Position numbers and translations under genes: made by a program. Below, in pieces: positions 2,359 through 35,000 of a DNA stretch of 38,646 bases (positions within the stretch are counted from its first letter, which is position 1; the number at the start of each line of letters is the position of its first letter). The notes beneath the pieces are model-generated. The model made no database searches, was not told where the DNA came from, and saw only the letters and a list, made by a program, of their open reading frames with translations. This DNA comes from Candidatus Rifleibacteriota bacterium. GTDB taxonomy: Bacteria; Muiribacteriota; Ozemobacteria; Ozemobacterales; Ozemobacteraceae. The stretch lies in NCBI GenBank assembly GCA_051747585.1, contig JBNJGH010000024.1, forward strand, positions 1-38,646. The letters run 5' to 3'.

Positions 2359-2383
2359 TTCTGCGCCGAAATTTTGGCACGGG

Positions 2384-2947
2384 TTAAAAAATGGAAGGAG
2401 CGAGAAAAAAACTCATTTTTAAAAGCTTATGCTGTTCATTGGATTTTTGAGTTTTCGGTTGTAATTCTATATCTGTAAATAGCAGATCATAGTATTTTTG
2501 ACCTGTTTGTTTGCCCGAAAACAAGGCGACAAAATTTGCTTTTTTTATTCGGTTCGGACCAAGTAATTTTTTCCTGGAACTTTCTCTTACCAGGGCATTT
2601 TTTTCTTTATAATATTTTACTTTATTCCCGTCGGATAAAGTAATTATAAGGCGACGGTTTTTGGTTTCCGGTATGGGCATACTCCCATCAAAGGTTTTAT
2701 CAGAAATTGAAGGAATAGCATTATTAGCAGAATTCCGGATTTCGAAATTTTTAGATTTAAGCATGTCTTCCTGTAACAAACTGTAAATCTCGTTTAAAAC
2801 AGCAGACGAGTCCAGCATTGAAGTTCCTTTGGTGCTTTGCCTTGTATAGCTTGATAGAAGTGAATAGACCGTCATCACAATTAGCGAAAAGAGAGTAACA
2901 GCAATTATTATTTCAACAAAAGTAAAGCCTGTTTTATTATTTGTCAT
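2384..2947 (-). CDS. Prepilin-type N-terminal cleavage/methylation domain protein (PilW/PulJ-like minor pilin)
   Basis: Class III signal peptide MTNNKTG|FTFVEIIIAVTLFSLIVMTVY. Confidence 0.85.
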   Translation of the reverse strand: MTNNKTGFTFVEIIIAVTLFSLIVMTVYSLLSSYTRQSTKGTSMLDSSAVLNEIYSLLQEDMLKSKNFEIRNSANNAIPSISDKTFDGSMPIPETKNRRLIITLSDGNKVKYYKEKNALVRESSRKKLLGPNRIKKANFVALFSGKQTGQKYYDLLFTDIELQPKTQKSNEQHKLLKMSFFLAPSIF

Positions 2948-3471
2948 GGTTTTACTCCGACAAACAAATAGCTTTCTCGTTCGACTTCTTTATCTGCGGT
3001 TTCGTTCCACGCAACCTTTATGGTTATTTTATACCAGTCCTGGGATAGATCGCTGCTTTTGTTGTCTAAGACTTTAGTTACAAGCAGAGTGCGCCGAAAA
3101 AAGCCTTCTGGTAGAGGTGAAATTGAAAGCCCTGCTTCATTACTGCCTGACAAGCAAAGCTTTTGTGGATATTTGAGTCCAGTATCACTCAATTGTCCAT
3201 TTAAAGCTTCAAGAGTTTTTTTCAGGTCGCGCGGCGAAGGAATTATGGCTTCATATCCTGGAGATTGGCTAATATTTAACAGTTGTTGACATAGTTCATT
3301 TATCAAAACTTGTGACTGAAAATGATTTACTCCTCTTTGTATCTTGTTGGAGGTGACATTAAGAGCGCTGGAAAGAGGCAAAATTGCAATGAGGATAACG
3401 CAGGAAGCTACCAGGATTTCGACCAACGTAACCCCGGATTCTTTAGTTTGCACCTTTGATTTCAAATCCAC
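2944..3471 (-). CDS. Prepilin-type minor pilin (PilV/PulI-like)
   Basis: KESG|VTLVEILVASCVILIAILPL class III signal; C-terminal YKITIKVAW strand typical of PilV/GspI-like pilins; 4-nt overlap with the next gene. Confidence 0.8.
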   Translation of the reverse strand: MDLKSKVQTKESGVTLVEILVASCVILIAILPLSSALNVTSNKIQRGVNHFQSQVLINELCQQLLNISQSPGYEAIIPSPRDLKKTLEALNGQLSDTGLKYPQKLCLSGSNEAGLSISPLPEGFFRRTLLVTKVLDNKSSDLSQDWYKITIKVAWNETADKEVERESYLFVGVKP

Positions 3472-6441: not shown

Positions 6442-6510
6442 GCCGTATTTAAATTTCTTAAATTAAATTTTATTGCTGGATTGTAATACGAAATTTTGAG
6501 GAGATGTGCT

Positions 6511-8643
6511 ATGAAAAAACTGTTCCTTGCAATCATGGTTCTTATAGGATGTTTGTTTTTGCCATGTAGGACTTATGGAGCAGCAAATGTTAGTCTGCAT
6601 CGCAATTTTGATTCTGTAAATGAAATCCCTATCGGCGCTGACGTTTGCCCTTTTTGTGGGTCAGGTACCGATGAAGGAATTGATAATTCTGGGAAATCGC
6701 TTCCAGACAGCAAAAAGGCCGGACTGGTATTGTTTTTTGAAGCTAGAAAAGAAATTATGGCCCGGTATCGCCAGGAATTGGCAAAAATTAAAGCTGGAAC
6801 AGGCTCAGATGAATATACCGATGAAGAAATTGCCAGCGATGAAGTTGAAGATGATCTTGATGACGCAGATGTCAGCTATGAAACTGACGAAGACTCTGAT
6901 GCTGATAGTTCTTCAAAAGGAAAAGGACTTCTTAAAAGCTTTATAGAAAAAGCGATATTAAAAAAGGCTGCTTTTGAAGAAGGGCTTTCAAAACTTGAAA
7001 AAATTAGACAGCTTAGAATTGAACGTAATAAACGTATTGCAGAAGCAAGAAAAAAATACATTTTAAATCCGGTTGCTTCATTTTTAAAGGGGGATGGAAA
7101 TTCTTTCAGAGGCGAAGCCACACCTGGCGAAATCGTCGCGGTTAAGCGCATTATGGCAGTTAAAAAGCTGCTAAAAACTGGCGAATGGCCCTATCAGTGT
7201 AAATGCGGCATAGCTCTTACCGAAGAGCAGCAGGATAATATTAGCGAACCCGAGGACATTGCCACGCCCGAAGGAATGGTTCTTGAAACCAAGCCGATAG
7301 TTGAAGGCCAGACAATTGGTGACAGTGAAGAACTTGATGCTATCTATGAAGAAAAAGAAATAGGTCAGACTGGTTCGCAATTTGAGCAAGATACGGGAGA
7401 CACCGGTGGAAGTTCGGTCTTTGGCGATGCTGGTGATATTGATACTGGTTCCGGTGCTGGCCAGTCTGACGCTGGCGTTATTTCAGATTCAACTGGTGAT
7501 GCAACCGAAATTGGAGAATTCACTGACAGCGTTATTGCCCGATGCGTTTATATTTCTCAGAGGTCTGGTTGGAGATGCAATGCACATTATCGTGGTTGTG
7601 GCTGGACTTCTTTGGCTATGATATTAAGAACTCTTGGCGTCAATGTTGATCCCGATGTGCTTTTTGCCCAGACTGAAATGTACAATTCGGAAGTTGCTAA
7701 AACCGGAATAGGTTACCAGGAAGTCGAAAGACTGGCCCATAAGTATTTGCCTTCTGCAACTTTTTCAACAAAAGGCAAAATAAATGATTTGATGGAAATG
7801 ATTAATCTGGGTCGTCCGGCAATTGTTTCGACCACCGAATACGGCGGACACTTCATGGTAGTTATTGGCTATGGCGACAAAGACGGGCAATCGTGCATTA
7901 TTGCCCACGACCCGGAGAAAAAAGCCAACAGAGTTTATCCTCTGGATGAGTTTACGAAAATCTGGGATAAAATATACATGAACTTTAATGAAACAACGCC
8001 TGACCCCAGTGGTCCCGCTTTGCCCGATGATGCTAATACAGTTGTTTCTAATTCTGGGTCTGGGTCATCAGGTGGTAGTTCCTCGGATGGCGATGAAGGC
8101 GAAGAAGACGGCAGCAGCACTGGCGAAGCTAATCAGCCTGAAATCAGCGAAAATTCTGTTGTTTTAGAAGTGCCTAAACTCAATCAAAGAAAAAATGCAC
8201 CACCTCTTGCAGCAAATGTTGCTGGAATGAGTTGTGGTCCGACTTCTACTCTGATGATTCTTAATTACTTTGGAATTAACCCGGGAATTGAAGCCGTGGT
8301 CGACAAAGCAGAGTGTACATCTGGTGGAAGCATGTTTTATAAAAATGTCGAAGCGGCGCAAGGTTATGGCTTGAAGTCAGAAAATGTAGGCATAGGTTAC
8401 GGGGCTTTTCAAAAAGCTCTTGAAGCTAATAAGCCTGTTTTTGTTCGAACCCTGGATTGGGAAGGACATTTCGTTGTTGTTACCGGCATTAAAAACGGTA
8501 AAGTAATTGTTAACGACCCGTATCCTCGGAATTATGGCGCTCATGGCTATAATGACCTTGGCAGCAACCTTTATCGTGAATATGATGCAGATGAATTTTT
8601 CAGCTCAGGCTTTGTAACAAACGCCTGTTCAATCTATAACTGA
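6511..8643 (+). CDS. Secreted protein with two C39-like (papain-fold) cysteine peptidase domains
   Basis: Signal peptide; GAGGAG SD before ATG 6511. Domain 1: Q..GCGWTSLAM...GHFMVVIGY...IAHDP. Domain 2: Q..SCGPTSTLM...GHFVVVTG...IVNDP. Confidence 0.8.
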   Translation: MKKLFLAIMVLIGCLFLPCRTYGAANVSLHRNFDSVNEIPIGADVCPFCGSGTDEGIDNSGKSLPDSKKAGLVLFFEARKEIMARYRQELAKIKAGTGSDEYTDEEIASDEVEDDLDDADVSYETDEDSDADSSSKGKGLLKSFIEKAILKKAAFEEGLSKLEKIRQLRIERNKRIAEARKKYILNPVASFLKGDGNSFRGEATPGEIVAVKRIMAVKKLLKTGEWPYQCKCGIALTEEQQDNISEPEDIATPEGMVLETKPIVEGQTIGDSEELDAIYEEKEIGQTGSQFEQDTGDTGGSSVFGDAGDIDTGSGAGQSDAGVISDSTGDATEIGEFTDSVIARCVYISQRSGWRCNAHYRGCGWTSLAMILRTLGVNVDPDVLFAQTEMYNSEVAKTGIGYQEVERLAHKYLPSATFSTKGKINDLMEMINLGRPAIVSTTEYGGHFMVVIGYGDKDGQSCIIAHDPEKKANRVYPLDEFTKIWDKIYMNFNETTPDPSGPALPDDANTVVSNSGSGSSGGSSSDGDEGEEDGSSTGEANQPEISENSVVLEVPKLNQRKNAPPLAANVAGMSCGPTSTLMILNYFGINPGIEAVVDKAECTSGGSMFYKNVEAAQGYGLKSENVGIGYGAFQKALEANKPVFVRTLDWEGHFVVVTGIKNGKVIVNDPYPRNYGAHGYNDLGSNLYREYDADEFFSSGFVTNACSIYN

Positions 8644-15836: not shown

Positions 15837-16022
15837 TTAGTCTTTGACAATGAAAAGTTGTTTCATAATCATATAATCTTCGCTCATGTAAGCCAGTTCC
15901 CAACCGTTGCGCCCGGCTTCGTCAAGAACCTGACCGAGACGATCGATAAAATCGGGGCCTTTGTATGGCTGAAGATCGAGTACTTTATAATTCCAGCGTT
16001 TTGGAGATTTTTCAAGACTCAT
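15837..16022 (-). CDS. DUF4177-like small protein
   Basis: RWNYKV...LDEAGRNGWELA motif; AGGAG SD before the ATG at 16022; overlaps the end of the upstream HEAT/TPR gene. Confidence 0.7.
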   Translation of the reverse strand: MSLEKSPKRWNYKVLDLQPYKGPDFIDRLGQVLDEAGRNGWELAYMSEDYMIMKQLFIVKD

Positions 16023-18474
16023 AAGTTGCTCCTGATTGAATTGGTTTTTGTTCTTCAATAATTGAATTAAGGTAGATGTAGCTTCTTAAAAGCTGGCGGG
16101 TGGCCAACTCCGGTTGAGCAGACTGGGCGCAGGCCTGTAAGGTAAGATCCATTGCACTGAATGCTCTCTGGTCGTCGCCAATCAAATTGAAGCAGTAAGC
16201 CAGCAGCAAGTTAGATTCAACATCTACAGGTGAAAGTTCAATTGCGGTTTGCAATGTTTTTATGGCGTTATTGAAATCGCTGTTTTTGATATGTTGGGTG
16301 GCAAGCTTTTGATAAATAATCGGATTTCTTGGCGATAAAGATGCGGCTTTCGATAACAGCTTTATGCTTTCGTTTGTTTTGCCCGCAATCTGGTAAATTT
16401 GTGCCAGAAGCATGTAAGCGCCAAGAATCTTTGGATAAATATTAAGAGCTTTTACCAAATGTTTGGCAGCTTGCTGGTATTTTCTTACATAATAATAAAT
16501 TGAACCCAGATTATAATGGGCTTTAACCAGATTTGGGTTGATTTCTAAAGCAGAAGTGTAATATCCGGCAGCTTCAGAATAATTTTTTTGCATAAAATGA
16601 ATATTGCCAAGTCCGAGAATTGCTTTTAAGTGATCTTTTTTGGAACTGAGAATTTTTTTGAAAATTTTCTCGGCCATTTCAAAATTTTTGGCGGCAACAA
16701 AACTGTTAGCCATTTCGATTTCATCGCTATAAGACTGTTCAGGCATAAGCGGTCTGGTAATTTTTTCTACCGGAGCGGGTGCAGCCTGTTGCGGTTCAGG
16801 TTGTAGTTTCTCTTTTTTTTCTGGAGGTGCCGGTTTTTCCGTTTCAGGAGCTTTAGTTTCGGGCTTGGGCTCTTCTTCTTTTGCTTCAGCCTCAGATTCA
16901 GGACTTGCTGTGGTCTCTTCTCCGGTTGGCTGGGCCAATTTTTCTTTTGTCTGTTGTGTTTCTTTAAAGCTTGCATTGATCGAAGCTGCAATTTTTTCGG
17001 GATTCTCGATAAGCTGAGAAATAAGATTATTTACTGCGGGAAGAAGTTCTTTTGATTTACTTATTTCACTACCGATTTCACCGAGCACAAAGGTTGCCGA
17101 TTTAATCAAAGCTTCATCGTTGCTGGCAAAAAGTTCTTTGAGATTGTCGAGAACTTCATATTCGCCACATACCCAGAGTGTTTTTATTGCAGTGCTCTTA
17201 ACCCTGTTGTCTTCGTGTTTGAGTAATTGTTTGAGGGTTACGATAAAGTCTTTTCCGGGCTTTCCTGAAAGAAGTTTAAGAGCTTCGATAGTATTGGAAA
17301 CCACTCTGGGGTCTTCGCTTTCAAGAAACTTTGTAATCTTGTCGACCATATCTGCATTGCCGATTTGGCCAATACAGGAGATAATTGTGGCCTGAACAAT
17401 GAAGTTTTCTTCTATTTGAAGCCTTTCAATCAGAAGTTCACCGGCTTTATCCGGTGCACATCTCGCTAAAGCAAGGCTGGCCTGAACCCTTACATCAAAA
17501 TTCGGATCGCTTAACATTGGTTTTAAATGCGGAAAAGCGTCAGGATATTCTATCTTTCTCAGTGCATTTGCTGCATTTCTTCTTACATCAGGATCTTCGT
17601 CTTTTAAACACCTGGAAAGCTGCCTGATGAATTTGGAATCTTTGATTTCACCAATGGCGTATGCCGCTGAAGCTCTGTACCATTTATCAGAATGTTTCAG
17701 CATCTGCTTGAGTGTGTCTGAAACGTCATAATCACCATATTTCCAGATAGCTTTGGCCACATTAGCTTTTACCCTGTTACTTGGATCATCAAGGTAGGGC
17801 TGAATTATGCCGACAATCGAGCCGGATTTAAGGCTTTCGATTGCTTCGATTGCGTTGGCACGTACCCTTGGGTCATCGTCACGGAGAGCAGATTGAAAAA
17901 CGGGCATAAGTCGTTCATTCGACATCATGCCCAAAGACATAATAATCGAAGCTCTAATTCGCGGGCTTTTTTCCTGGGCCAGAATCTTTTTGAGCAGCGA
18001 AGCTGACTGCCAGTTCATTAGTTTTCCCAGGGCAAGAATGGCAGAAATTATAGCTTCTTCTTCGAAAAATAATTGAGTAGTTGGCTCGTCAGATTCGGTT
18101 ATATCTTCTTCGGATGGATTCAAGCCGGTCTCTGCATAGCTGTTGAGAGCTTCCATCAAAATATTGAAAGCTTCAGGATTTTCCATCATTCCCAGGGCTT
18201 GGGCGGCATTAAATCTAACTTCCTGCTGAGAGTCATTGAGTGCGTTGATCAAAAGTTTGACCGCTTTTGAACTGTCAATGTTTCCGAGAGCAAGCGCCAT
18301 AAAATCCTGGATGTTGTCGCTCTCGTAAGTTTGTAATAAAAAGTCTGTAGCGCATTCACCCTTAAATTTTGAAAGAGCGATGGCTGACTCTCTTCTTTGT
18401 TGATAATCACCGTTTAAAAAATTGTTAATTAAATGGGCTAGCAATGGTTGTAGACTATCTAGAACAGCTTTCAT
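16012..18474 (-). CDS. HEAT-repeat (PBS-lyase-like) plus C-terminal TPR protein
   Basis: Many HEAT units (DSQQEVRFNAAQALG, DDDPRVRANAIEAI, DEDPDVRRNAANAL), a Pro/Glu/Lys linker, then TPRs (ALEINPNLVKAHYNLG); GAGGA SD. Confidence 0.9.
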   Translation of the reverse strand: MKAVLDSLQPLLAHLINNFLNGDYQQRRESAIALSKFKGECATDFLLQTYESDNIQDFMALALGNIDSSKAVKLLINALNDSQQEVRFNAAQALGMMENPEAFNILMEALNSYAETGLNPSEEDITESDEPTTQLFFEEEAIISAILALGKLMNWQSASLLKKILAQEKSPRIRASIIMSLGMMSNERLMPVFQSALRDDDPRVRANAIEAIESLKSGSIVGIIQPYLDDPSNRVKANVAKAIWKYGDYDVSDTLKQMLKHSDKWYRASAAYAIGEIKDSKFIRQLSRCLKDEDPDVRRNAANALRKIEYPDAFPHLKPMLSDPNFDVRVQASLALARCAPDKAGELLIERLQIEENFIVQATIISCIGQIGNADMVDKITKFLESEDPRVVSNTIEALKLLSGKPGKDFIVTLKQLLKHEDNRVKSTAIKTLWVCGEYEVLDNLKELFASNDEALIKSATFVLGEIGSEISKSKELLPAVNNLISQLIENPEKIAASINASFKETQQTKEKLAQPTGEETTASPESEAEAKEEEPKPETKAPETEKPAPPEKKEKLQPEPQQAAPAPVEKITRPLMPEQSYSDEIEMANSFVAAKNFEMAEKIFKKILSSKKDHLKAILGLGNIHFMQKNYSEAAGYYTSALEINPNLVKAHYNLGSIYYYVRKYQQAAKHLVKALNIYPKILGAYMLLAQIYQIAGKTNESIKLLSKAASLSPRNPIIYQKLATQHIKNSDFNNAIKTLQTAIELSPVDVESNLLLAYCFNLIGDDQRAFSAMDLTLQACAQSAQPELATRQLLRSYIYLNSIIEEQKPIQSGATYES

Positions 18475-18570
18475 TTATTTCCTCAATCTTTTATATAGTA
18501 ACTTTCCTTTGATACTAGCAGATTGCGATTTTTTTTTAAACGTAATTTTTGCGATAAAACCTGATTAAAA

Positions 18571-18684
18571 AGATTGCTTTGTTGCTATGCACCTCGCAAT
18601 GACAATTTGCGGCTGTCATTATATATTGCTCATTGAGCGTTAGTCGAAGTGCCTGTGCTGAGCGGAGTCGAAGCAAAGCAATCT
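18571..18684. repeat. Composite REP-like palindromic element
   Basis: Terminal 11-bp inverted repeat AGATTGCTTTG / CAAAGCAATCT; inner AATGACA/TGTCATT stem; two tandem TGAGCG(n)AGTCGAAG units at 18634-18649 and 18659-18673. Confidence 0.65.
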
Positions 18685-18747
18685 AAATGGCTTGAAACAG
18701 CCGTTAAAAATTAAATGGAAAACTACTGGTCGTATGGTTATAAATCG

Positions 18748-18777
18748 TTGTAACTGTAAACAAGAATAGGGTATAAT
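18748..18777 (+). promoter_or_regulatory. Putative promoter of the pilT cluster (leaderless start)
   Basis: TTGTAA (18748-18753), 18-bp spacer, TATAAT (18772-18777); ATG 7 nt downstream with no SD. Confidence 0.55.
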
Positions 18778-18784
18778 TCAAAAC

Positions 18785-19858
18785 ATGCCAGACGATAAAA
18801 GCCTTTATAAATTACTTAAACTAACTTTTGACGAGAAGGGATCAGATTTACATTTAAAAGCGGGCAGGGTTCCGGCAATAAGAGTTGATGGTCATATTCG
18901 TCATCTCGAGGGGTTCCGTTTCAATAAAAGAGATTTTAAAGATATTATAGAAACTCTTTTGACACCGGAACAGCAGGAACTGTTTTTACAGAAACATGAG
19001 CTCGATTTTGCCCATACACTTGAGGGTGTGTGCCGCTTCAGAGTAAATCTATATATGGATCTTAACGGCTATGGTGCAGTTTTCAGGGTAATACCATACA
19101 GAGTTATGGATTTCGATGAAATTGGTTTGCCTCAGGCTGCTCGAAAATTAATAGAACAACCCAATGGCCTGATTCTTTTAACAGGTCCGACTGGAGCAGG
19201 TAAAACCTCTACCCTGGCAAGTTTTTTGAACTATGTTAATCATACTGCCGCGCGTCATATTGTAACCATCGAAGATCCTATTGAATATCAGTTTGATGAT
19301 GTTAAAAGCTTCTTCAATCAAAGACAGGTCGGAGTAGATTGTCTGGGATTTTATGAAGGGTTGCTGACGGTATTGCGCCAGGACCCTGATATCATTGTCG
19401 TGGGAGAAATGAGAGAGCCTGAAACAATTGCTCTCACTCTTAATGCCGCCGAGACCGGCAAACTGGTGCTGGCAACTTTGCATACCAGTTCTGCGGTTTC
19501 TACCGCTGAGCGCATTGTTAATGTTTTTCCCGAATCACGACATCATCAGATCCTTTTGCAGCTTTCAATGGTGCTTAGAGGGGTTATTTCCCAGAGCCTG
19601 GTGCAAAAAATAGATGGCGGCCGGGTAGCTGCTTTTGAATTGCTTTTAAATACTTCTGCCATACGGTCTTTGATTGCAGACGGTAAAATTCACATGCTGC
19701 CCTCATACCTGGAAACGGGTACCGAATATGGCATGACAACAATGGAACTTTCGTTGGCCAAGCTGGTAAAAGAAAAAATTATAAAAAAAGAAGAAGCTTT
19801 TGCAGTTGCACCAAATTTGAATGCCCTTAAAAAAATACTGCTCGAGCCGCCAAGCTGA
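18785..19858 (+). CDS. pilT: PilT/PilU family type IV pilus retraction ATPase (paralogue 1, canonical motifs)
   Basis: SDLHL, Walker A GPTGAGKTST, Asp box TIEDPIE, Walker B DPDIIVVGEMR, ATLHT, AIRSLI. Confidence 0.9.
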   Translation: MPDDKSLYKLLKLTFDEKGSDLHLKAGRVPAIRVDGHIRHLEGFRFNKRDFKDIIETLLTPEQQELFLQKHELDFAHTLEGVCRFRVNLYMDLNGYGAVFRVIPYRVMDFDEIGLPQAARKLIEQPNGLILLTGPTGAGKTSTLASFLNYVNHTAARHIVTIEDPIEYQFDDVKSFFNQRQVGVDCLGFYEGLLTVLRQDPDIIVVGEMREPETIALTLNAAETGKLVLATLHTSSAVSTAERIVNVFPESRHHQILLQLSMVLRGVISQSLVQKIDGGRVAAFELLLNTSAIRSLIADGKIHMLPSYLETGTEYGMTTMELSLAKLVKEKIIKKEEAFAVAPNLNALKKILLEPPS

Positions 19859-19869
19859 GGAATGATTTA

Positions 19870-20907
19870 ATGCTGAGAATTCATAAATACTTCAAAATCG
19901 CACTTGCAAGAAATGCCTCTGATCTGCATCTAAAAGCAGGAAGCCCGCCGATGATAAGGGTGGGGGGGCGTATTCTTGTATTGCCCGAAGAACCACTGGC
20001 ATATCAGGAAATGCCGAATCTTTTTCTGCCTTTGATGGACGTTAAATCGCAGAATGATTTGCGAGCTGCCTTTGAAACAAACTTCATGACCAGATATAAA
20101 AATCGCTGGCGTATCAGAACCAGCATTTTCAGACAAAGAGGTTGCCTTTCGGGCTCATTCAGGTTTATACCCCTGCATCCACCTTCTATTGACAGTCTTA
20201 GTCTGCCGGTTCTTTTAAAAGATATTGCAGGTAAACCAAGGGGGTTGTTTCTTGTTACCGGCCCTGCAAATTCAGGTAAAACCCATACTCTTGCCGCTAT
20301 AGTCAATGAAATTAACCGTATTTCAGCCAGGCATATAATAACTATTGAGGACCCGATTGAATTTGTTCACAAACCTAAAAAATCTATTTTTACTCAGAGA
20401 GAAATAGGTATTACGGCAAATGGCTATAACAGCGCTTTAATGAATGCTTTACGCGAAGACCCCGATGTTATTCTTGTTGGCGAAATGCGTGATACCAATA
20501 CAATTGAGATGGTCTTAACCGCTGCTGAAACAGGGCATCTCGTGTTTTCGACGCTACATACTGTGGGTGCTGTCCAAACCATAGATAGAATTATTAATGT
20601 TTTTCCCGGTCACAGACACGAAGAAATTAGAACGCAACTTTCAATGTCTCTTATCGGAATGATTTCGCAGATACTTTTACCCAGCATCCATAAAAAAGAA
20701 AGAGTGATGGCCTACGAATTAATGATTATTAATTCGGCAATGCGCAACCTTATAAGGGAAAAGAAAACTAACCAGTTAAAGTCGGCTTTGATGCTTGCCC
20801 GAAAAGACGGCTGTAAAACTCTGCGTGATTCATTGACAGAAATGCTTAAAGATGAGCGGGTTGATGGCAAGCTGGTATCTACGCTTTTGAAGGAGATAGT
20901 TGAATAA
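19870..20907 (+). CDS. pilT: PilT/PilU family ATPase (paralogue 2, canonical motifs)
   Basis: ASDLHL, GPANSGKTHT, TIEDPIE, ALREDPDVILVGEMRD, His box GHLVFSTLHT, AMRNLIRE. Confidence 0.9.
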   Translation: MLRIHKYFKIALARNASDLHLKAGSPPMIRVGGRILVLPEEPLAYQEMPNLFLPLMDVKSQNDLRAAFETNFMTRYKNRWRIRTSIFRQRGCLSGSFRFIPLHPPSIDSLSLPVLLKDIAGKPRGLFLVTGPANSGKTHTLAAIVNEINRISARHIITIEDPIEFVHKPKKSIFTQREIGITANGYNSALMNALREDPDVILVGEMRDTNTIEMVLTAAETGHLVFSTLHTVGAVQTIDRIINVFPGHRHEEIRTQLSMSLIGMISQILLPSIHKKERVMAYELMIINSAMRNLIREKKTNQLKSALMLARKDGCKTLRDSLTEMLKDERVDGKLVSTLLKEIVE

Positions 20908-23057
20908 TGGCAGAATTTAATGAAATTGAATCCTTCAGATATGTAAAAGCGGTCAAAAAAATACTTGAGCCGGCAAGCCGTTTTCTGGAAAAACTACAGC
21001 AAGAAAGTTGCTCAGATGAAGTGAAGCTCGAAGCTTTGATAAGTCTGGGAAAAATTGGTGACAATGGGTCTTTAAATATTTTAATAAAGGCCTTTGAAAA
21101 TTTTCCTGATTATATTGAACCCATTACAGCCCTGGGATTATACAAAAACAGTACGCCGGTGCCAAAACTGCTGGAGCGTTTAGAAGATCCTGATGCCCTG
21201 TATAAAGATGAAATAGTAAGGGTGTTAGGGGAAATCGGCGATCCTATGGCTACCAAACCTTTGATTGAATTGCTTCACGATGAAGATCGAATGGTAAGAT
21301 ATTATGCTGCCCGTGCCCTTTATAAAATGGGCGGCCGCGATGTAGTTCAGAGCCTGTGCGGATTGTTGAACGATCCGGATGAATGGATTGTTATAAATGT
21401 TCTTGAAATATTGGCCAGCCTCAAAGACCCTGAAGCAATACCTTCTCTGGTCGGGCAATTCGAAGTTGCCAGAGATTCAAGGTTAAAGGCGATAATAATT
21501 TCTTCGCTTTCGGCTTTTGATGAAGGAAAGTTGCTCAAAACATTTGAAAGTGGTCTTACTTCTTTTGATCCGAGAATTCAGGCAAATTCTGTTGAGGCTA
21601 TTTCGCGACTTAAGATTCCAGCCCTGGAAATGAAACGCAAGCTTAAAAAATTCTATGGACACGAGAATAACAGGGTGCGTGCCAATGTCTGTATCGCTTT
21701 GGCTCAGGCCGACAGAGAAGCCATCGAGAAAGAAATAGAAGCGATGCTTAACAGCAGAGACGCTTCAACCAGGCGATCAGCAGCCTATGTGCTTATGAAC
21801 ATCGATTCGGAAAACCGGGTCGAAAGGATACACCAACTATTACAGGATGAAAATTTCGGGGTTAGAAAAATGGCTCTAAAAGCAGCCTTAGCCCTGGATG
21901 AAAATATCGGAATCAATGAAATTATTCCATTGCTTGAAGATAAAAACCAATGGGTGAGAAGGCAGGCGGTTGAATGTGCTGTTCGGGTGAATGATTTCCC
22001 TGCAGATAGAATTCTGGAGCTTTTTGAAAATGAAGATAGTTCGGCAGTAGTTGAAAGTATTCTTAAATTCATCAATTCAAGAAGCTTAAAAACGGCAGTC
22101 CCCATGATTTTTGACCGAATCAAGCTCGAACCCGAAGATGAATTGCCCTGGTTAATTGCTTCACTTGGGCATCTTGGCGCACGAGAGGAATTAAAAAAGG
22201 TTAAGAGATTCCTGGGAGCGGTCAGAACAGAGGTGTTTGCTCAATATTACCAGGCTTTACTTATAAACGGTGATCTGACTGTGTTTGATGAGATTGTTTC
22301 TTTCCTTACTGCTAAAAAACGTAATCAAGATCTTCTGGTATGGTCAGGTATTACTGGTGAAGTAGGGGCTTTCGCTACCGACCCCGATAATTATTCTCGG
22401 TCTCTAATCGCAGCACTCGAACCTGAGGTTAAAAAAGATATGCAGGGTGTTGTTACTGCGTTTGATGAGCCCGACGAAGAAAAGAACTATGAGCGGCAAC
22501 TGGAGCAGGCAATGGAACTGCATGATTCAGGAAATTACAGCAAAGCAGCCAGGCTCTTCAAGAAAATAGTAGATAATCAACCCGAGAATTCAGATGCTGC
22601 TTATTATCTTGCAAGTTCATACTATAATCTTGGAGATGTTAAAAAGGCAATCGAGCAGTTGAACAATAATATAAGAAGATTTTCTGATAATTTTTCTTCT
22701 TCTTTGTTGCTCGGGCAGATTTTATTTAGAAAAAAAGAATGGCAGAAGCTTATTGACTGTTACGAAAAAGTAACAGAGAAGATTGCAGAGAGCGATAAAA
22801 GAAATAAAATCAGAGTCTTTGGCGCACTGGGGCTGGCTTATTTCCATACAAAGGCTTACAAAAAGGCGATTAATGCTTTGAAAGCAGCTCTCGAAATAAA
22901 CCCGAGAGACTTGTCTTCTTCTTATCATCTGGCTTTATGCTACTATGCAACCGGAAAAAACGAGCAGGCCAAAACAATTCTCGAATCTTTGCGAAAAAGG
23001 CTGCCATCAGACAGTAAAGTGCTTAAAAACGTTATTGAGCTGCTACAAAGAATTTAG
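20907..23057 (+). CDS. HEAT-repeat plus C-terminal TPR protein
   Basis: HEAT units (DEDRMVRYYAARAL, DPRIQANSVEAI, ENNRVRANVCIAL) and TPRs (ALEINPRDLSSSYHLALCY); coupled to pilT2 by a TAATG overlap. Confidence 0.9.
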   Translation: MAEFNEIESFRYVKAVKKILEPASRFLEKLQQESCSDEVKLEALISLGKIGDNGSLNILIKAFENFPDYIEPITALGLYKNSTPVPKLLERLEDPDALYKDEIVRVLGEIGDPMATKPLIELLHDEDRMVRYYAARALYKMGGRDVVQSLCGLLNDPDEWIVINVLEILASLKDPEAIPSLVGQFEVARDSRLKAIIISSLSAFDEGKLLKTFESGLTSFDPRIQANSVEAISRLKIPALEMKRKLKKFYGHENNRVRANVCIALAQADREAIEKEIEAMLNSRDASTRRSAAYVLMNIDSENRVERIHQLLQDENFGVRKMALKAALALDENIGINEIIPLLEDKNQWVRRQAVECAVRVNDFPADRILELFENEDSSAVVESILKFINSRSLKTAVPMIFDRIKLEPEDELPWLIASLGHLGAREELKKVKRFLGAVRTEVFAQYYQALLINGDLTVFDEIVSFLTAKKRNQDLLVWSGITGEVGAFATDPDNYSRSLIAALEPEVKKDMQGVVTAFDEPDEEKNYERQLEQAMELHDSGNYSKAARLFKKIVDNQPENSDAAYYLASSYYNLGDVKKAIEQLNNNIRRFSDNFSSSLLLGQILFRKKEWQKLIDCYEKVTEKIAESDKRNKIRVFGALGLAYFHTKAYKKAINALKAALEINPRDLSSSYHLALCYYATGKNEQAKTILESLRKRLPSDSKVLKNVIELLQRI

Positions 23058-23124
23058 ATTGGATTGGTGAAATAATCATGGCATTGTGTCGATACGCCGT
23101 TAAACATAAAATTGCGAGGTCTGT

Positions 23125-24177
23125 ATGTCGGATTTAGTTAAGCTGTGTCAGGAAGTAACGACCAAGAATGGTTCTGACATTCATGTGTTCCCAGGGCAGC
23201 CTGTTTTTTATCGGGTTAACGGATTGTTAAATCGACTGGATGATTTTATTTTTAGTGAAGAACAGGTAAAGAAATTTATTCTTGAGACCAGTTCGCCCAA
23301 GGCTCGAGAAATACTTGGGCGACAGCGACAGGTTACCTATGCAGTAGATGTTGAGGGGGTAGGCCGGGTAAGGTTTTCTGTATTTCTCGATAAGGGAAAA
23401 TTTGCTATTGAAATGCGAATTCTGGCCGAAAAATTTTATGAACTCGAGCATCTGGGTTTTACTGAAGGAATAAGAAAAGTTATTTCTCAGGCAAACGGAC
23501 TTATCCTGGTTGCCAGCCCCTCCGGAGAAGGCAAAACCTCAACTATAGCAGCAATTTTAAATTTTATTAACAAACATTTCGAGAAAAGTATTTTTACCAT
23601 CGAAAATCCGGTTGAATTTGTATTTAAAGATGATAAATCTGCATTTATTCAGCGAAGTATTCCGGTTGATATAACCAACTTTTACAGCGGATTGTGTGAA
23701 GCCTATCGAGTTGATCCGGATGTAGTAGTTTCTGATTCAATAAACTACCCGGATGCAATGGATCAGGCCTTGACTCTTTGTGAGTCAGGTTGTCTGGTAA
23801 TTGGTTCAACCGAGGGAGGGGATTGTCAGCAGATTATTGATAGAATAATTAATTCGCGAGAGCCCCAGGAGCGTGAAGCTTTAAGAACTAAGCTGGCTTC
23901 CCAGCTCAAAATGATTATCAGCCAAAGGCTTGTTCCGGTTGAACATATGAAGGGAGTGGAAGCAATCTTTGATATAATGATCAATACTCCCCAGTTGAAA
24001 GGTTTGATTCGAAATAACAATATGAGTATGTTTAGAGCCTTGCAGAGCCAGGGCGAAATTGCCGGAATGAGAACCTTTGATTCACAGCTTTCGAGCCTTG
24101 CACGAAAAGGGGTTATTAATCCCAAAATCGCCAGAGAATTCGCAATCGATAAAAACAGATTTGTTGGAAAAAGTTGA
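23125..24177 (+). CDS. PilT-like ATPase paralogue 3 with degenerate Walker B and His box
   Basis: GSDIHV; Walker A SPSGEGKTST retained; Asp box TIENPVE; Walker B DPDVVVSDSI lacks GE; His box replaced by GCLVIGSTEG. Confidence 0.85.
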   Translation: MSDLVKLCQEVTTKNGSDIHVFPGQPVFYRVNGLLNRLDDFIFSEEQVKKFILETSSPKAREILGRQRQVTYAVDVEGVGRVRFSVFLDKGKFAIEMRILAEKFYELEHLGFTEGIRKVISQANGLILVASPSGEGKTSTIAAILNFINKHFEKSIFTIENPVEFVFKDDKSAFIQRSIPVDITNFYSGLCEAYRVDPDVVVSDSINYPDAMDQALTLCESGCLVIGSTEGGDCQQIIDRIINSREPQEREALRTKLASQLKMIISQRLVPVEHMKGVEAIFDIMINTPQLKGLIRNNNMSMFRALQSQGEIAGMRTFDSQLSSLARKGVINPKIAREFAIDKNRFVGKS

Positions 24178-24191
24178 TGGGAGCAGTTTGA

Positions 24192-25232
24192 ATGGATACT
24201 AGAAAATTAATTGAAGATGTAAAAAACGCCGGCGGTACTGAGCTCCATCTTAAAATCGGTTCCAAGCCTTTAATGAGAAGAAGCAAGTTTTTGCGAAAAA
24301 TCAGCTCTCCTGTTCTGCAGGAAGATGACATGAAGAGTTTAATCGAAGAATTTCTCAGTGCAGAAGATCAAAAAAAGTTTGCCAGATTAAGCTCTTTTGA
24401 AGCCAACTTTTTTGGTCAGCCGCCCTGCAACTTTAGAATGACTCTGTTTCATTCTCAACAAAAACCAATCGCTATTATAAAAATTATAAGTGGCGATATT
24501 CCAAAACTTAAGGAAATAAATTTTCCTGATGCACTTGTACCTGCTACAAATTCGAGAAGGGGAATTTTTATTCTGGCTGGGCCTGCACGGTCAGGCATTT
24601 CGACAACTCTGGCTTCGATAATCGAGCAGGTCAATCAGACTGATAAAAAACATATTCTGGTTATAGAAGACCCGATCGAATTTAATTTCAAACCCAAGGG
24701 TTGCAGAATTTCGCAACGGCAGTTTCGCAAAGATATTTATAGAATTGAACAGGGCATAAATTTTGCCAAACGAATGGATGTAGATATACTGGTAATAGGT
24801 GATCTTAAAAGAGATATACCTTTTAGAAGCGTTTTAGAATATGTTGCCGGCGGGCATTTTGTTATTTTATCAATGCAGACTCTTGGAATAGCAAACACAC
24901 TGGAGAAATTTATTTTTTCTTTTCCCGAATCAGATAGAAATTATGTTTGTCAGGTACTTGCAGAAAATCTTCTGGGTCTTTGCTCGCAAACCCTTATAAC
25001 TGATCCGGCCGGGCAAAAAGTTGTTCCTGTCCAGGAAGTCCTGGTGATGAATCAAACTGCTGCAAGTATAATTCAGAAGGGCAAGGTAGCTCAGCTTGAG
25101 CCCAATATCATGAGTGCAGGCGAGGGGAGCCAGGTATTTGCACAACATCTGCAAAAATTGTATATGAATAATGAGCTCGATCGAAATTCGGGCGAAAATT
25201 TTCTTGAATTTTATAGAGGTATGAGAGCTTAG
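24192..25232 (+). CDS. PilT-like paralogue 4, probably catalytically inactive
   Basis: TELHLK; Walker A GPARSGISTT lacks the Lys; VIEDPIE retained; Walker B DILVIGDLK has Glu replaced by Asp; GHFVILSMQT. Confidence 0.85.
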   Translation: MDTRKLIEDVKNAGGTELHLKIGSKPLMRRSKFLRKISSPVLQEDDMKSLIEEFLSAEDQKKFARLSSFEANFFGQPPCNFRMTLFHSQQKPIAIIKIISGDIPKLKEINFPDALVPATNSRRGIFILAGPARSGISTTLASIIEQVNQTDKKHILVIEDPIEFNFKPKGCRISQRQFRKDIYRIEQGINFAKRMDVDILVIGDLKRDIPFRSVLEYVAGGHFVILSMQTLGIANTLEKFIFSFPESDRNYVCQVLAENLLGLCSQTLITDPAGQKVVPVQEVLVMNQTAASIIQKGKVAQLEPNIMSAGEGSQVFAQHLQKLYMNNELDRNSGENFLEFYRGMRA

Positions 25233-25235
25233 AAT

Positions 25236-25613
25236 ATGAATTTAAAAAAGCGATTTGGTTTTACCATGATAGAAATGAGCGTTGTTGTGGCTATTATAGG
25301 TATTTTATATGTAACAGTAGTACCTATGTATGGTAAAACAATTATAAGAGGTAAAGAAACTGCCTTGAAAAAAGATTTGTATGTTTTTCGCAAAACCATC
25401 GATGCTTATTACAAAGATTATGGAAATTGGCCTGAAAGCTTAGACTCTCTGGTTGAGCAGGGGTATTTGCGCAGCATACCACCCGATCCTTTTACCGAAA
25501 GCAAAGATACCTGGAAAACCATACCTTCGGAAGACGGGGCCGGAGATGTTTACGATGTGAAATCCGGCTCAGACAAAACCGGTCTCGATGGCAAAAAGTA
25601 TTCCGAGTTTTAG
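25236..25613 (+). CDS. GspG/PulG-like pseudopilin
   Basis: RFG|FTMIEMSVVVAIIGIL class III signal and the KETALKKDL...WPESLDSLVEQGYLRSIPPDPFT motif of short GspG-like pilins. Confidence 0.9.
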   Translation: MNLKKRFGFTMIEMSVVVAIIGILYVTVVPMYGKTIIRGKETALKKDLYVFRKTIDAYYKDYGNWPESLDSLVEQGYLRSIPPDPFTESKDTWKTIPSEDGAGDVYDVKSGSDKTGLDGKKYSEF

Positions 25614-25620
25614 CCGGCTG

Positions 25621-26019
25621 ATGAGTAAAATAATTAATAAAACGCTTTTAAAACAAAAAAACGGCGTAGCTTTACTTACTGTTACTATTTCGGTTATTAC
25701 TTTAAGCATTGCTGTTGCCGTTGCTTTGCCTGGTGTTAAAAATAATGTTCGCCGTGAAAAAGAAGATAATCTGAGATTTATACTTGGTGAATTTCGTCGA
25801 GCTGTTGGTAAATACCAAAGATGCCACAATAGTTATCCGCAAAGTTTGCAAGACCTTTTAAAAGATGAAGAAGGCAACAGATTTCTTCGGCGCGCATATA
25901 GAGACCCATTTACCGGTAAATTCGACTGGAAAGTTACCACCGCAAGCAATAGCTTCATTGTCCATTCTTCTTCAAATCAGAAAAGTATAAGCGGTATACC
26001 TTACAGTAATTTTAAATAG
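25621..26019 (+). CDS. Second GspG-like pseudopilin (no Glu5)
   Basis: KNG|VALLTVTISVITLSIAVAV, then REKEDNLRF...YPQSLQDLL...FLRRAYRDPFTG. The start could be 25588 instead. Confidence 0.8.
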   Translation: MSKIINKTLLKQKNGVALLTVTISVITLSIAVAVALPGVKNNVRREKEDNLRFILGEFRRAVGKYQRCHNSYPQSLQDLLKDEEGNRFLRRAYRDPFTGKFDWKVTTASNSFIVHSSSNQKSISGIPYSNFK

Positions 26020-32091: not shown

Positions 32092-35000
32092 TTACATAGA
32101 TACAATCTTGCCACCAGAATTGCGAACATTTTCACCTCTGGTGTTGGTGAAACGGTTTTTTCCGAGTTTTACAACAGCTTTGTTGCCTCTTATATAAATA
32201 CCATCTCTGTTATTTTTATCAAAAATATTGTTTTTTATAGATTGAGGCTGGGCATCCCAGACTTCGATTCCCGAGTAATTATTGTTGCTCAGTCTGTTAC
32301 CTTCGTAATTGCCCGAAGCATTGGCATAAATAAGCATACCATTCTCGCCGTTATTTGCAATTAAATTTGAACGGAAACTCGGTGAAGCATGATTCTTTAC
32401 ACCAACTCCTGATTTCCCGTTGTTTTTTATGGTATTTTCGCTGACCTGAGCTTTTGAGCGGCCGTTAAACCAGATTCCGTATATCTGGCATGCTTCAATA
32501 TTGTTGTGGGAAATTACCGGAGAACCGCCGGTTACAGTAATTCCCATGCCTTTACTTTTATTGAGCTGATTGGATTTTATTACAGGTGAGCCACCGGAAA
32601 CTGCGATAATTTCAGTATAATTTGGCCTGGTTGCCGGGGTGCTGTTGCTGAGCATGCATTCGCTGATTTCAGAATTGCCTGAAGAAATTGCAATTGTCGG
32701 GAAGGATTTTTTTGAAGAATTAGAAAGCATAAGGTTTTTTACAACCGCATTCGCGGTTATAGTAATTGTCGGACCATTATTGCAGTTTAATCTGCAGGCT
32801 GAAACTGATTCGCCGACTATTATTACAGGTTTGTTTACATAAACCTTTTCATTATAATTACCCGGTTTAATTTTTATGGTCATACCATTGGGAGCCGCTT
32901 TTATGGCCTGGTTAATAGATTTGTATTTCTGACCCGGACCCACAACGAATTCCTGCGGGGTGCTTGCGGCTTTTTTCGCCTGGGCTATTTGAACTTGAAG
33001 CCTTTGAGCAGCGTCAGAGCCGGGCGAAAATTGTTTGGCAAGTCTTACGGCCTGCTCTGCTCTGGTGAAATCTTTGCTGGCAAGATGTTGATTGCCGTTT
33101 TTCAACAGGGCATTCACAATTTTGCCATTAAAAGCATCAACTTTATCGGGAGCGTTGTCTTTAAGAAAAACCTGTGTGTCAAAAAGTTCATCAGCTCTTT
33201 CATAGATCTGATTTTGAGCTATAATTTCTTCGGCGTTATTAAGAAGGTTTCCGGTAACCTGTTCGGATTTATTTTGTTCCACAAGCTTTTGCAGTCTGTT
33301 TTCATATTTAACTAATTCAGAGTCGTTTGTGAATTCCGGAATTTTTTGCAGGGTTTTAAGTAAGCCATAAGCTACTTTGGGGTCATTTTGCCTGTTAATT
33401 TTTTCTATGTAATTATTTTTGAGCTCATTTAATGCCTGAGTTTTCTTGTCAGTCTGGTTCCAGGTGTTAAAAATGCCAAGTTTGTTAGTAACAGGTGAAA
33501 TATTGGTTTTGGGTTCAAAATTGCTGATAAGTTTTATGGCCGACTCAACCTTTTCAGATGAAAGTTTATTTACGGCACTTTGAGTAGAGCCGGCGGAATC
33601 CGGAGTGAGGGCAACCAGCATTCTATGGCGTTTAAAAGCCTGGTCCGGGTTTGATGAATTTTCGAAATAATCGGTCAGATTTTTACTGACTTTGCGACGA
33701 TATTTTGTTGCTTCAGTTTTAGAGACTTCGGTTTCAAGTTTTTCAAGGGCTTTTCTAATATTGCCTAATTTATTTTCGTCGGGAGATTTAATAAAGCTTT
33801 CGATCTGGTTAATTAAAGGCGCAGCAGCTCTTTTTCTTGCTTCAACCTGCTTTTGTTGCTCGATATGATCTTTTTTGTCAGATAGATAAGTTAGAAAATC
33901 AGGATCATGAGCAAAGACCACCTTTGCAGTGTCTATTGTATTTTCGGCCTTAGTTATATCTACGGGGACAGAGGCTTCAATTTCTTCTTTGACTCTGTCT
34001 TGTAAATGTTGCATAAGTTTTTCAGGCGCTTCTGAATCGGGGTATTCTCGCCATAAAGCGCTGATCTCGGCGGCAATTTTATCCATATCTTCAGGAATAG
34101 GGTCTTTTTTTATTCCGGTATAGATGGAATTTTTTGCAACTTTGAGTCTTTCGGCTCTTTCTTTTTCTTCTGCCGCTTTTCTTCGAGCTTCTTCTTCCTG
34201 TATCTTTTTTTCTATATTTTTAGCAATTTCTTTGATGCCAGGAGCTTCAGGATTAATCTCATAGCAGTAATCAAGGATTTGCTTTGCAGTTTGCGGCGAC
34301 TTTTTAAGCTCGGTAGTAACAGCATTAAAATATTTTTCAAAAAGTGTGTTTCTTAAACTGCGAACTTTTTTGCTGCTATCTGCATATCTGGCTAATTCTT
34401 TTAATTTCGCCTGAATCGGGGCAATATCCTGGGGGGGCTCTATCTGGGCTATATCTTTTGAAATTTCATTAGCCAGTTCGTCACGTTCGGCTTTCATTTC
34501 TTCAGAGGAACGAAGGGTTGAAAGGCTTTCGCTTGCCAGTTGCATGCTGGTTTCGAGGCCCTCAAGCCCGGGCCAGGTATTTTTGGCATTTTCAAAAAGT
34601 GCAAGAGCTTTTCCAGGCTCATTAACAATAAGCTTTTCGCCTTCATTTTTAATTTTTTCTGCAAGCTTCTGTTTAAGATTTTCAGCCTGTTTCTTTTCTC
34701 CCAGCTCTTCAACCTTATTGATCTGCTTGAGAATAAATTCAATTTCCTGATCGCCGGTATAATTGTCTATTGCGGCACTCAGGGCAGACTTAAGCGAATC
34801 GAGTTTCTGAGCATCAGCCAGTTCTGTTTTTAATTCTTCGTTTTTGTTTCTTGCCCGCTCTATTAAACTTTCAACTCCTTCAAGTTCAGGAAAGTTCTGC
34901 TTTAATTCGGTAAAATATTGTAAAGCCTTTTCGGGCTGATCATTGATAAAGCTGCTGCCGCTGGCTATAAATCTGGTTTGCCATCGTGCCACGAGCTGAG

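Follow-up and report, generated by a model that had tools for sequence, protein, structure and literature searches.

On a 38,646-nucleotide stretch of DNA from Candidatus Rifleibacteriota (family Ozemobacteraceae; contig JBNJGH010000024.1 of assembly GCA_051747585.1; hereafter the window), eight neighbouring genes encode four ATPases of the PilT family (T1 to T4), two proteins with HEAT and TPR repeats (HEAT_A and HEAT_B) and two prepilin-like proteins (pil1 and pil2). The cluster is real, family-wide and undescribed in the literature searched, and its ATPases probably belong to accessory PilT motors. It consists of two juxtaposed modules, T1–T2–HEAT_B and T3–T4 with or without the pilins, rather than one stand-alone system. 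In the first module the two ATPases have lost complementary residues at the contacts between subunits, suggesting a ring in which they might alternate; in the second, both ATPases have lost catalytic residues invariantly and are nevertheless kept by purifying selection.

The suggestion that the system was undescribed stands within the scope of the search: neither this cluster, nor HEAT partners of PilT, nor natural PilT pseudo-ATPases were found in the literature covered, which left subscription journals mostly outside and excluded supplements. The searches likewise turned up no member that has been cultured or assayed. Looking up the cluster proteins in the Atlas returned generic PilT and pilin clusters only.

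Layout and conservation of the two modules

The genes of the cluster are as follows.

HEAT_A: 16012..18474, minus strand; 820 amino acids (aa), with HEAT repeats at about 1-495, an unconserved linker and TPR repeats at about 570-800 (Pfam, conservation profile)
T1: 18785..19858, plus strand; PilT-family ATPase with complete catalytic residues (TIGR01420, motif tables)
T2: 19870..20907, plus strand; PilT-family ATPase with Walker A Lys, Walker B Glu and His present (TIGR01420, motif tables)
HEAT_B: 20907..23057, plus strand; 716 aa, with HEAT repeats (conserved core at about 100-300), a linker and TPR repeats (Pfam)
T3: 23125..24177, plus strand; PilT pseudo-ATPase (motif tables)
T4: 24192..25232, plus strand; PilT pseudo-ATPase (motif tables, AlphaFold2, Foldseek)
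pil1: 25236..25613, plus strand; type IV prepilin of 125 aa with a G|F...E5 motif (Pfam N_methyl)
pil2: 25588..26019, plus strand; paralogue of pil1, 29% identical, with a probable start at 25621

The original prediction had described an operon-like run from pilT1 to the second pilin with a further HEAT/TPR gene divergent from pilT1, and all eight open reading frames (ORFs) are present where it placed them. Gaps from T1 to pil1 measure 11, -1, 67, 14 and 3 bp, and HEAT_A is divergent from T1 at a spacing of 310 bp. The 26-bp overlap of pil1 and pil2 becomes a 7-bp gap if pil2 begins at the ATG at 25621, in agreement with its orthologues. In a Pfam and NCBIfam profile scan covering 25 window ORFs, T1 (411.7 bits) and T2 (377.6 bits) lie above the cut-off of the PilT/PilU family TIGR01420 (319.1 bits); this is also the best family for T3 (273.9 bits) and T4 (227.8 bits), both of which fall under it. 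HEAT_A and HEAT_B each carry N-terminal HEAT and C-terminal TPR repeats (Pfam). The HEAT_B core at about residues 100-300 is conserved and common to its paralogue, its TPR end is conserved too (conservation profile), and no signal peptide is evident at the N-terminus of HEAT_A. As had been claimed, no PilB/GspE, PilC/GspF or secretin occurs among the 25 ORFs. A promoter and terminator scan of the window (27 against 22.1+-5.0 and 16 against 10.4+-3.1 in shuffles) was not used.

The pilins had been called GspG-type pseudopilins, which holds only in part. Like GspG/PulG-type pseudopilins, pil1 is a short pilin with a class III signal, including Glu+5, and its Atlas neighbours are named as type II secretion system protein G family. 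However, it scores 40.4 bits against TIGR01710 (GspG, cut-off 88.85 bits), pil2 has no match to that family, and the type II secretion genes are missing from the locus. The cleavage site and hydrophobic helix are present in pil2 and Glu+5 is missing, presumably a minor-pilin pattern of the PilX/GspK type.

Conserved gene order, proposed earlier as a check on the cluster, is found: by tblastn, 28 of 38 related loci have the order T1–T2–HEAT_B–T3–T4 uninterrupted, nine run into a contig end and one breaks it. At strict thresholds, T1 is present in 48 of 50 other Ozemobacteraceae genomes, T3 in 48 and T4 in 49 (genomes without T3 or T4 are only 64-67% complete), and each is present in none of the 36 genomes from the phylum's other families, the search for T3 being phylum-wide. 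HEAT_B occurs in 50/51 family genomes, mostly as two copies. Among 1.84 billion representatives only three T4-specific proteins were recovered, P0055, P0062 and P0077 (one whole, two partial). Five loci titled as other phyla (L018, L023, L024, L037 and L038) bear the cluster at 56-76% identity; mislabelling of Riflebacteria assemblies seems a likelier cause than transfer.

The boundaries of the modules emerge where the cluster comes apart. T3 is followed by T4 on one contig in 48 of the 49 T3-bearing genomes (the remaining case is a contig break), and T4 lies within 2 kb of HEAT_B in 41 of 50, the others comprising six contig breaks, two splits and one absence. In G013 and G024, from one genus, the triad T1–T2–HEAT_B and the group T3–T4–pilin are found at separate places, while G019 (96% complete) is without T1, T2, the second-locus gene T2' and HEAT_B and keeps T3–T4 and HEAT_A. 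The pilins are dispensable, and pil1 travels with T3–T4: it is present in 41/51 genomes and adjoins T4 in 39 of these, but is absent from all seven members of genus g12, in which all four ATPases remain. HEAT_A is a conserved, looser neighbour rather than a member of the triad. It is present in 49/51 family genomes, including the triad-less G019, travels with recG, which it follows, and is retained where the triad is gone. By eye, 34 of the 47 genomes that have both genes show it directly divergent from T1; three more carry an insert of 1.6-1.9 kb, three are unresolved and in seven the genes are separated.

A paralogous triad, T1'–T2'–HEAT_B', occupies a second locus in L039, L047 and L049 and in 28/30 further loci, adjoining a pilin–pilB cluster in L039 and L049. 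In a tree of 30 rows, with PilB and the 150 representatives left out, T1 and T1' are sister groups (99/99), as are T2 and T2' (100/100), which means that all three genes of the triad were duplicated together; T1 and T2 are each nearer to their second-locus paralogues than to one another. A clade made of T1 to T4 alone is rejected (approximately unbiased test, p-AU 9e-72). This speaks against the original prediction of one dedicated four-subunit motor, as do the split in G013 and G024 and the solitary T3–T4 of G019. Neither a T3+T4 clade (p 0.26) nor a grouping of all six triad and dead groups (p 0.08) is rejected, and T3 joins the first gene of a tandem pair on contig C209 with a support of only 79/74.

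Complementary losses and maintained pseudo-ATPases

Contact residues are numbered here as in Geobacter metallireducens, and the canonical PilT of the window genome is numbered alike at these positions. Between packing units (as defined in PMC5424180), McCallum 2019 (PMC6858323) describes the contacts H230–T221, T221–T133, R195–D161 and G277/P271–D32, with T221 contributed by the adjacent packing unit; R123D and R294E weaken binding to PilC. On this description, T133, D161, H230, D32 and G277 would belong to a subunit's own site, while R195 and T221 would be given to its neighbour.

The T1-type proteins (28 T1 and 31 T1') and the T2-type proteins (likewise 59) have lost different parts of this arrangement; the primed rows are full-length sequences from 29 of 30 new loci together with two earlier ones. 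D32, T133, H230 and G277 are found in 59/59 T1-type proteins, R296 in none and R124 in five; the window's own T1 is without both R124 and the Arg of the AIRNLIRE motif (R296). T2-type proteins have R124, R195, T221 and R296 in 59/59 and D32, T133 and G277 in none. The closing residues of T2's own site are altered (T133A, G134N, D32G and G277E), and its AIRNLIRE helix reads AMRNLIRE, with R, N, R and E in 28/28. In the duplicate triad the division is complete: R195 is found in 0/31 and T221 in 3/31 of T1', D161 is found in 0/31 of T2' and H230P in 31/31, and both halves are retained at the T2'-to-T1' contact only. The simplest reading of these reciprocal losses, as judged from the residues, would be an alternating ring with three working sites.

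A second pair of genes shows a comparable pattern. In three of three genomes read (G013, G024 and G006), a separate PilT fused to a HEAT domain has D161R/K and H230N with R195 and T221 intact, while its partner has R195K and T221M; the pair falls on separate tree branches from the triad. A HEAT-fused PilT with a partner and reciprocal losses, Asp161 to Arg/Lys among them, lies at L045:7370-10698, L084:2839-6320 and L085:4079-7430 and makes a strong case of its own as a candidate for a ring that must be mixed.

For the catalytic residues, full-length orthologues only were counted, partial rows (one T1, two T2, three T3 and two T4) being dropped. T1 and T2 have the Walker A Lys, the Walker B Glu and H229 in 28/28 each, save E204 in 27/28 of T2. 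In T3 the Walker A Lys is retained (35/35), but Ser stands in for the catalytic Glu (35/35), Glu or Asp for the His of the His box (His 0/35) and Asn for Asp161. In T4 the Walker A Lys has become Ile, a P-loop Gly has become Arg and the Glu has become Asp, each in 37/37; the His is replaced by Gln in 35 of the 37 (His 0/37) and T221 by Gly. In P. aeruginosa, E204A and H229A abolish twitching (PMC6858323). T3 is predicted to bind ATP without hydrolysing it, and T4 is predicted to be unable to bind ATP normally.

The degeneracy of both genes had been anticipated, and the losses prove invariant and retained by selection. Among four close loci the ratio of non-synonymous to synonymous substitution rates (dN/dS) is 0.005-0.013 for T3 and 0.017-0.033 for T4, comparable to T1 and T2, and frames without stops are open in 49 genomes for T3 and 50 for T4. 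The AlphaFold2 model of T4 (predicted local distance difference test score, pLDDT, 87.5) matches Geobacter PilT4 in Foldseek at E 2e-34 with a template modelling (TM) score of 0.85, indicating that the two-domain PilT fold is retained; its best structural matches, at TM 0.84-0.86, are the three-fold OCOCOC forms of G. metallireducens PilT4 (PDB 6OJY, 6OK2 and 6OLK). Because of the invariant losses, the low dN/dS and the kept fold of T4, T3 and T4 are regarded as maintained non-catalytic proteins and not as decaying genes.

A Walker A-dead PilT remains on the pilus machine and still bridges PilU via D2, R35, K36 and E53, and AIRNLIRE has been modelled at the PilC interface (10.1101/2025.10.30.685630). 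In a post-hoc comparison within one clade, at least three of these four PilU-docking residues (Teipen 2026) occur in 24/37 T4, 18/35 T3, 0/28 T1 or T2 and 4/77 background PilTs. R35 and K36 are lost in L035, one case of T3–T4 without a triad nearby. AIRNLIRE is absent in T4 and partial in T3, which keeps two basic positions, K292 (35/35) and R/K296 (35/35). By analogy, T3–T4 probably serve pili whose genes lie elsewhere in the genome, as an adaptor or brake without catalytic activity; the docking residues fit an adaptor, and a brake that blocks the platform fits equally.

Several PilT paralogues, most of them away from the main pil cluster, are also present in Geobacter sulfurreducens (PilT1-4) and in Myxococcus xanthus (PilT, PilU (MXAN_1995), MXAN_0415 and MXAN_6705/6706). 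In M. xanthus, deletions of MXAN_0415 and MXAN_6706 partly impair motility (10.64898/2026.05.11.724270). Unlike the genes of this locus, Geobacter's four pilT genes are scattered, and the four Geobacter and five Myxococcus paralogues all keep the Walker A, Walker B, Asp and His boxes (PMC5065972; 10.64898/2026.05.11.724270). 'HEAT repeat' partners go unmentioned in the passages found in these two sources.

Two further observations concern duplicated or degenerate PilTs. A third triad copy in genus g12 (L087:3000-8272) has two ATPases that look dead (H230Q and H230P, D161N and D161K), possibly a replay of how T3–T4 arose. Tandem PilT–PilT proteins, considered as T3–T4 fusions, were rejected as such: their halves score better against T1 than against T4, so that their top rank in a search with the T4 profile is a summed-score effect. 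These fusions (P0056-P0067, P0076 and P0078) come from other bacteria, one of them Ca. Eremiobacterota, and some halves are degenerate. Their residue patterns are mixed, with no clear reciprocal-loss signal, and they may be natural two-subunit PilT units.

HEAT proteins and filament machinery in the genome

The window genome contains 33 HEAT-like genes. Four of its 11 PilT ORFs adjoin a HEAT gene or are fused with one, three of them in this locus, compared with 54 of 3220 other genes (1.7%) that adjoin one. The earlier idea of HEAT scaffolds survives as a PilT–HEAT link, to which the duplicated triad, the co-loss in G019, the existence of fusions and a weak complex prediction all point; it does not extend to HEAT_A, which lies outside the triad. 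An interface is predicted when T1 and T2 are modelled with HEAT_B residues 60-355, at a score of 0.47 against 0.03 for the best control (partner pLDDT 78; runs agree on at least 70% of contacts), and the HEAT_B signal vanishes when T1 is replaced. The mark applied is reached by 116/157 solved and 2/215 mismatched pairs. At scores of up to 0.60 it is reached by only 18/157 solved pairs and by both mismatched passes, so that the support from this score is weak: binding of HEAT_B to T1 and T2 is weakly predicted, and its odds are moved little.

Fusions of HEAT and PilT are common, occurring in 8/39 long representatives scanned, one of them named Ca. Wallbacteria; a homologue search with the HEAT–PilT fusion gave 54 proteins, of which the named ones are nearly all Riflebacteria. 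In G000 (C39:10050-15905), L041, L052 and L053, such a fusion (about 930 aa, motifs intact) is convergent with or near a 1010-aa HEAT-adenylate/guanylate cyclase, and some genomes (L040, L052) have a second HEAT–PilT paralogue. MglB/Roadblock, sought as a polarity partner of the TPR ends, was found in none of the three genomes searched.

Machinery for type IV filaments is plentiful elsewhere in the window genome, and its absence from the locus is therefore not unusual. There are 11 PilT-like and 11 PilB-like ORFs, 18 matches to the PilC domain on 10 contigs, 65 prepilin-motif genes and 8 secretin matches, together with a canonical run of pilB, pilT, a pilC-like gene, pilin and prepilin peptidase on C1. 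With so many secretin genes (8) and PilB-like ATPases (about 11) available, the modules are likely to act in trans. The closest relatives of pil1 and pil2 in the genome are a pilin pair in a pilC–pilB–pilM operon on C2. Three further PilT loci were observed: a tandem pair whose second gene shares the P-loop Asn of T2 (G000 C209:1-2009), a PilT fused to an N-terminal domain resembling those that bind cyclic nucleoside monophosphates (cNMP) (G000 C31:4813-6645), and a PilT with a long Pro-rich N-terminus behind pilB (G000 C91:936-2429).

Within the window, a small ORF of about 61 aa, counted from the ATG, lies between HEAT_A and recG at 15837-16058 on the minus strand and is 54-75% conserved in relatives. 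Three prepilin-like genes (824, 175 and 187 aa) and a 473-aa gene that matches nothing in Pfam occupy 937-5917 (minus strand); the largest is without Glu+5, and comparable minor-pilin runs are present on C11 and C63. At 6496-8643 (plus strand) there is a 715-aa protein with two C39-type peptidase domains (Pfam), and at 32092-37335 (minus strand) a protein of 1747 aa that combines a tandem pair of Ser/Thr kinase domains with TPR and a beta-helix at the C-terminus; its gene adjoins a TPR gene.

A candidate mechanism and its alternatives

The account we favour, with confidence somewhat better than even, is that T1 and T2 form an alternating six-subunit ring bound by HEAT_B, that T3 and T4 serve as a non-hydrolysing adaptor or brake, and that both are accessory modules on filament machines encoded elsewhere. 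T1 would be the catalytic subunit: its three sites, completed by R195 and T221 of T2, would close around ATP and hydrolyse it. T2 would be the subunit facing the platform, remaining open and touching PilC through its AIRNLIRE helix. Such an arrangement would favour the three-fold open-closed state known from PilT crystals. In G. metallireducens PilT4 open and closed interfaces alternate within one protein, whereas here two proteins would fix the state. HEAT_B may grip the ring by its conserved HEAT core, leaving the TPR end to bind something else, for localisation or signal. T3 would keep its ATP unhydrolysed and T4 would carry none. If the pair behaves like engineered Walker A mutants, which remain on the pilus machine and can still bridge a second motor, it would either hold such a motor on a platform or occupy the platform itself. 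Hetero-oligomers are left as a possibility in a review of motor regulation (PMC11656802).

A number of points weigh against this account. T1 keeps R195 and T221 (28/28), and T2 keeps K137, D161 and H230 (28/28) and E205 (27/28); with these core residues kept, the asymmetry of the window's own pair is only partial, and each could form an active homohexamer. Some changes in T1' are conservative (R195K in 19/31, T221S in 28/31), and the assignment of contact residues to own site or neighbour follows the text of the McCallum paper and not coordinates. The residue counts come from kin and represent about two independent origins, not 59. PilT and PilU of V. cholerae are reported as independent homohexamers (PMC6821130; PMC6762196). 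The co-loss of T1, T2 and HEAT_B in G019 is seen in one assembly, and the HEAT part of the HEAT–PilT fusions resembles HEAT_B in a generic way only (E 3.8e-5), so that the fusions provide no specific Rosetta link to it. Finally, as T4 is without AIRNLIRE and T3 has it only in part, it is doubtful whether the dead pair binds the platform.

The alternative that survives best, although unlikely, is that the subunits form stacked homohexamers in the manner of PilT–PilU, with T2 on PilC, T1 below it as a booster, and T3 and T4 as separate dead adaptor rings. Stacking is the established PilT–PilU arrangement, in which both rings have intact sites, and a dead PilT can act there as an adaptor, since a Walker A-dead PilT still bridges PilU (10.1101/2025.10.30.685630). 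As in V. cholerae, P. aeruginosa and A. baylyi, adjacent PilT-family genes with and without AIRNLIRE are found here, T2 keeping it as PilT does and T1 lacking it as PilU does; Lys350 is nearly invariant in T1-type proteins, and T4 keeps the PilU-docking residues. In a PilT–PilU pair, however, it is the second ATPase that lacks AIRNLIRE and docks by a C-terminal extension on D2, E53, R35 and K36. Here the AIRNLIRE-less gene comes first and its tail is short, no T2 (0/28) has three of the four docking residues, a HEAT-TPR gene is coupled to the pair, and two paralogues are naturally dead. Moreover, the reciprocal loss of the two halves of three inter-subunit contacts in T1' and T2', and an Arg or Lys at D161 opposite R195 in the HEAT-fused pair, would cripple rings made of one kind of subunit. 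By analogy the triad would work most like the PilT–PilU arrangement, without being a member of it.

It is distinctly improbable that the rings are nucleotide-dependent switches in a signalling network of HEAT scaffolds, cyclases and kinases and not pilus motors. The HEAT–PilT fusion is convergent with the cyclase gene in G000, L041 and L053 and lies 2.4 kb from it in L052, a HEAT_A paralogue precedes a cyclase-like gene, and the genome encodes the cNMP-like PilT fusion. Yet residues that face the platform are retained in 59/59 T2-type proteins, pilin genes follow T4 in 39 of the 41 genomes having them, the second triad stands beside a pilin–pilB cluster in L039 and L049, and this locus contains neither kinase nor cyclase.

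The reading closest to the original prediction, in which four ATPases and both HEAT-TPR proteins make one dedicated motor acting on a short pseudopilus of the two adjacent pilins, has only a slim chance. The tight gene spacing, the closeness of T4 to HEAT_B in 41/50 genomes and the position of the pilins beside T4 in 39/41 would favour it. It conflicts with the separated modules of G013, G024 and G019, with the rejected T1–T4 clade and with the missing platform and assembly ATPase, and genus g12, with pil1 in 0/7 genomes, keeps all four ATPases. That T3 and T4 are decaying duplicates with HEAT neighbours by chance is barely credible: although the genome is HEAT-rich, with its 33 HEAT-like genes, and the branches of T3 and T4 are long, decay is refuted by family-wide retention as open frames (49 and 50 genomes) and a dN/dS of 0.005-0.033, the replacement residues are invariant, and background HEAT adjacency is only 1.7%.

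A broader form of the favoured mixed-ring account is more tentative, and we hold it with somewhat less than even confidence. In Riflebacteria, obligate mixed PilT hexamers, half of whose six subunits are catalytic and half structural, would be held in the clamp of HEAT-TPR proteins and act together with a dedicated all-dead adaptor or brake ring, allotting about ten retraction motors to about ten filament machines. This division of labour would have evolved on two or more occasions, and HEAT-linked PilT pairs in other phyla may generally follow it.

Whether PilT paralogues mix in one ring has been answered 'no' for PilT and PilU, and these genes are candidates for 'yes', with a residue-level prediction that names the catalytic subunit. 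If true, a ring fixed in an alternating open-closed state bears on which PilT conformation drives retraction, a question left open by McCallum 2019 (PMC6858323). PilT pseudo-ATPases conserved in nature would parallel, as products of evolution, the Walker-mutant adaptors made in the laboratory, and would illustrate how motors could be gated or shared in a cell that has many type IV filament systems.

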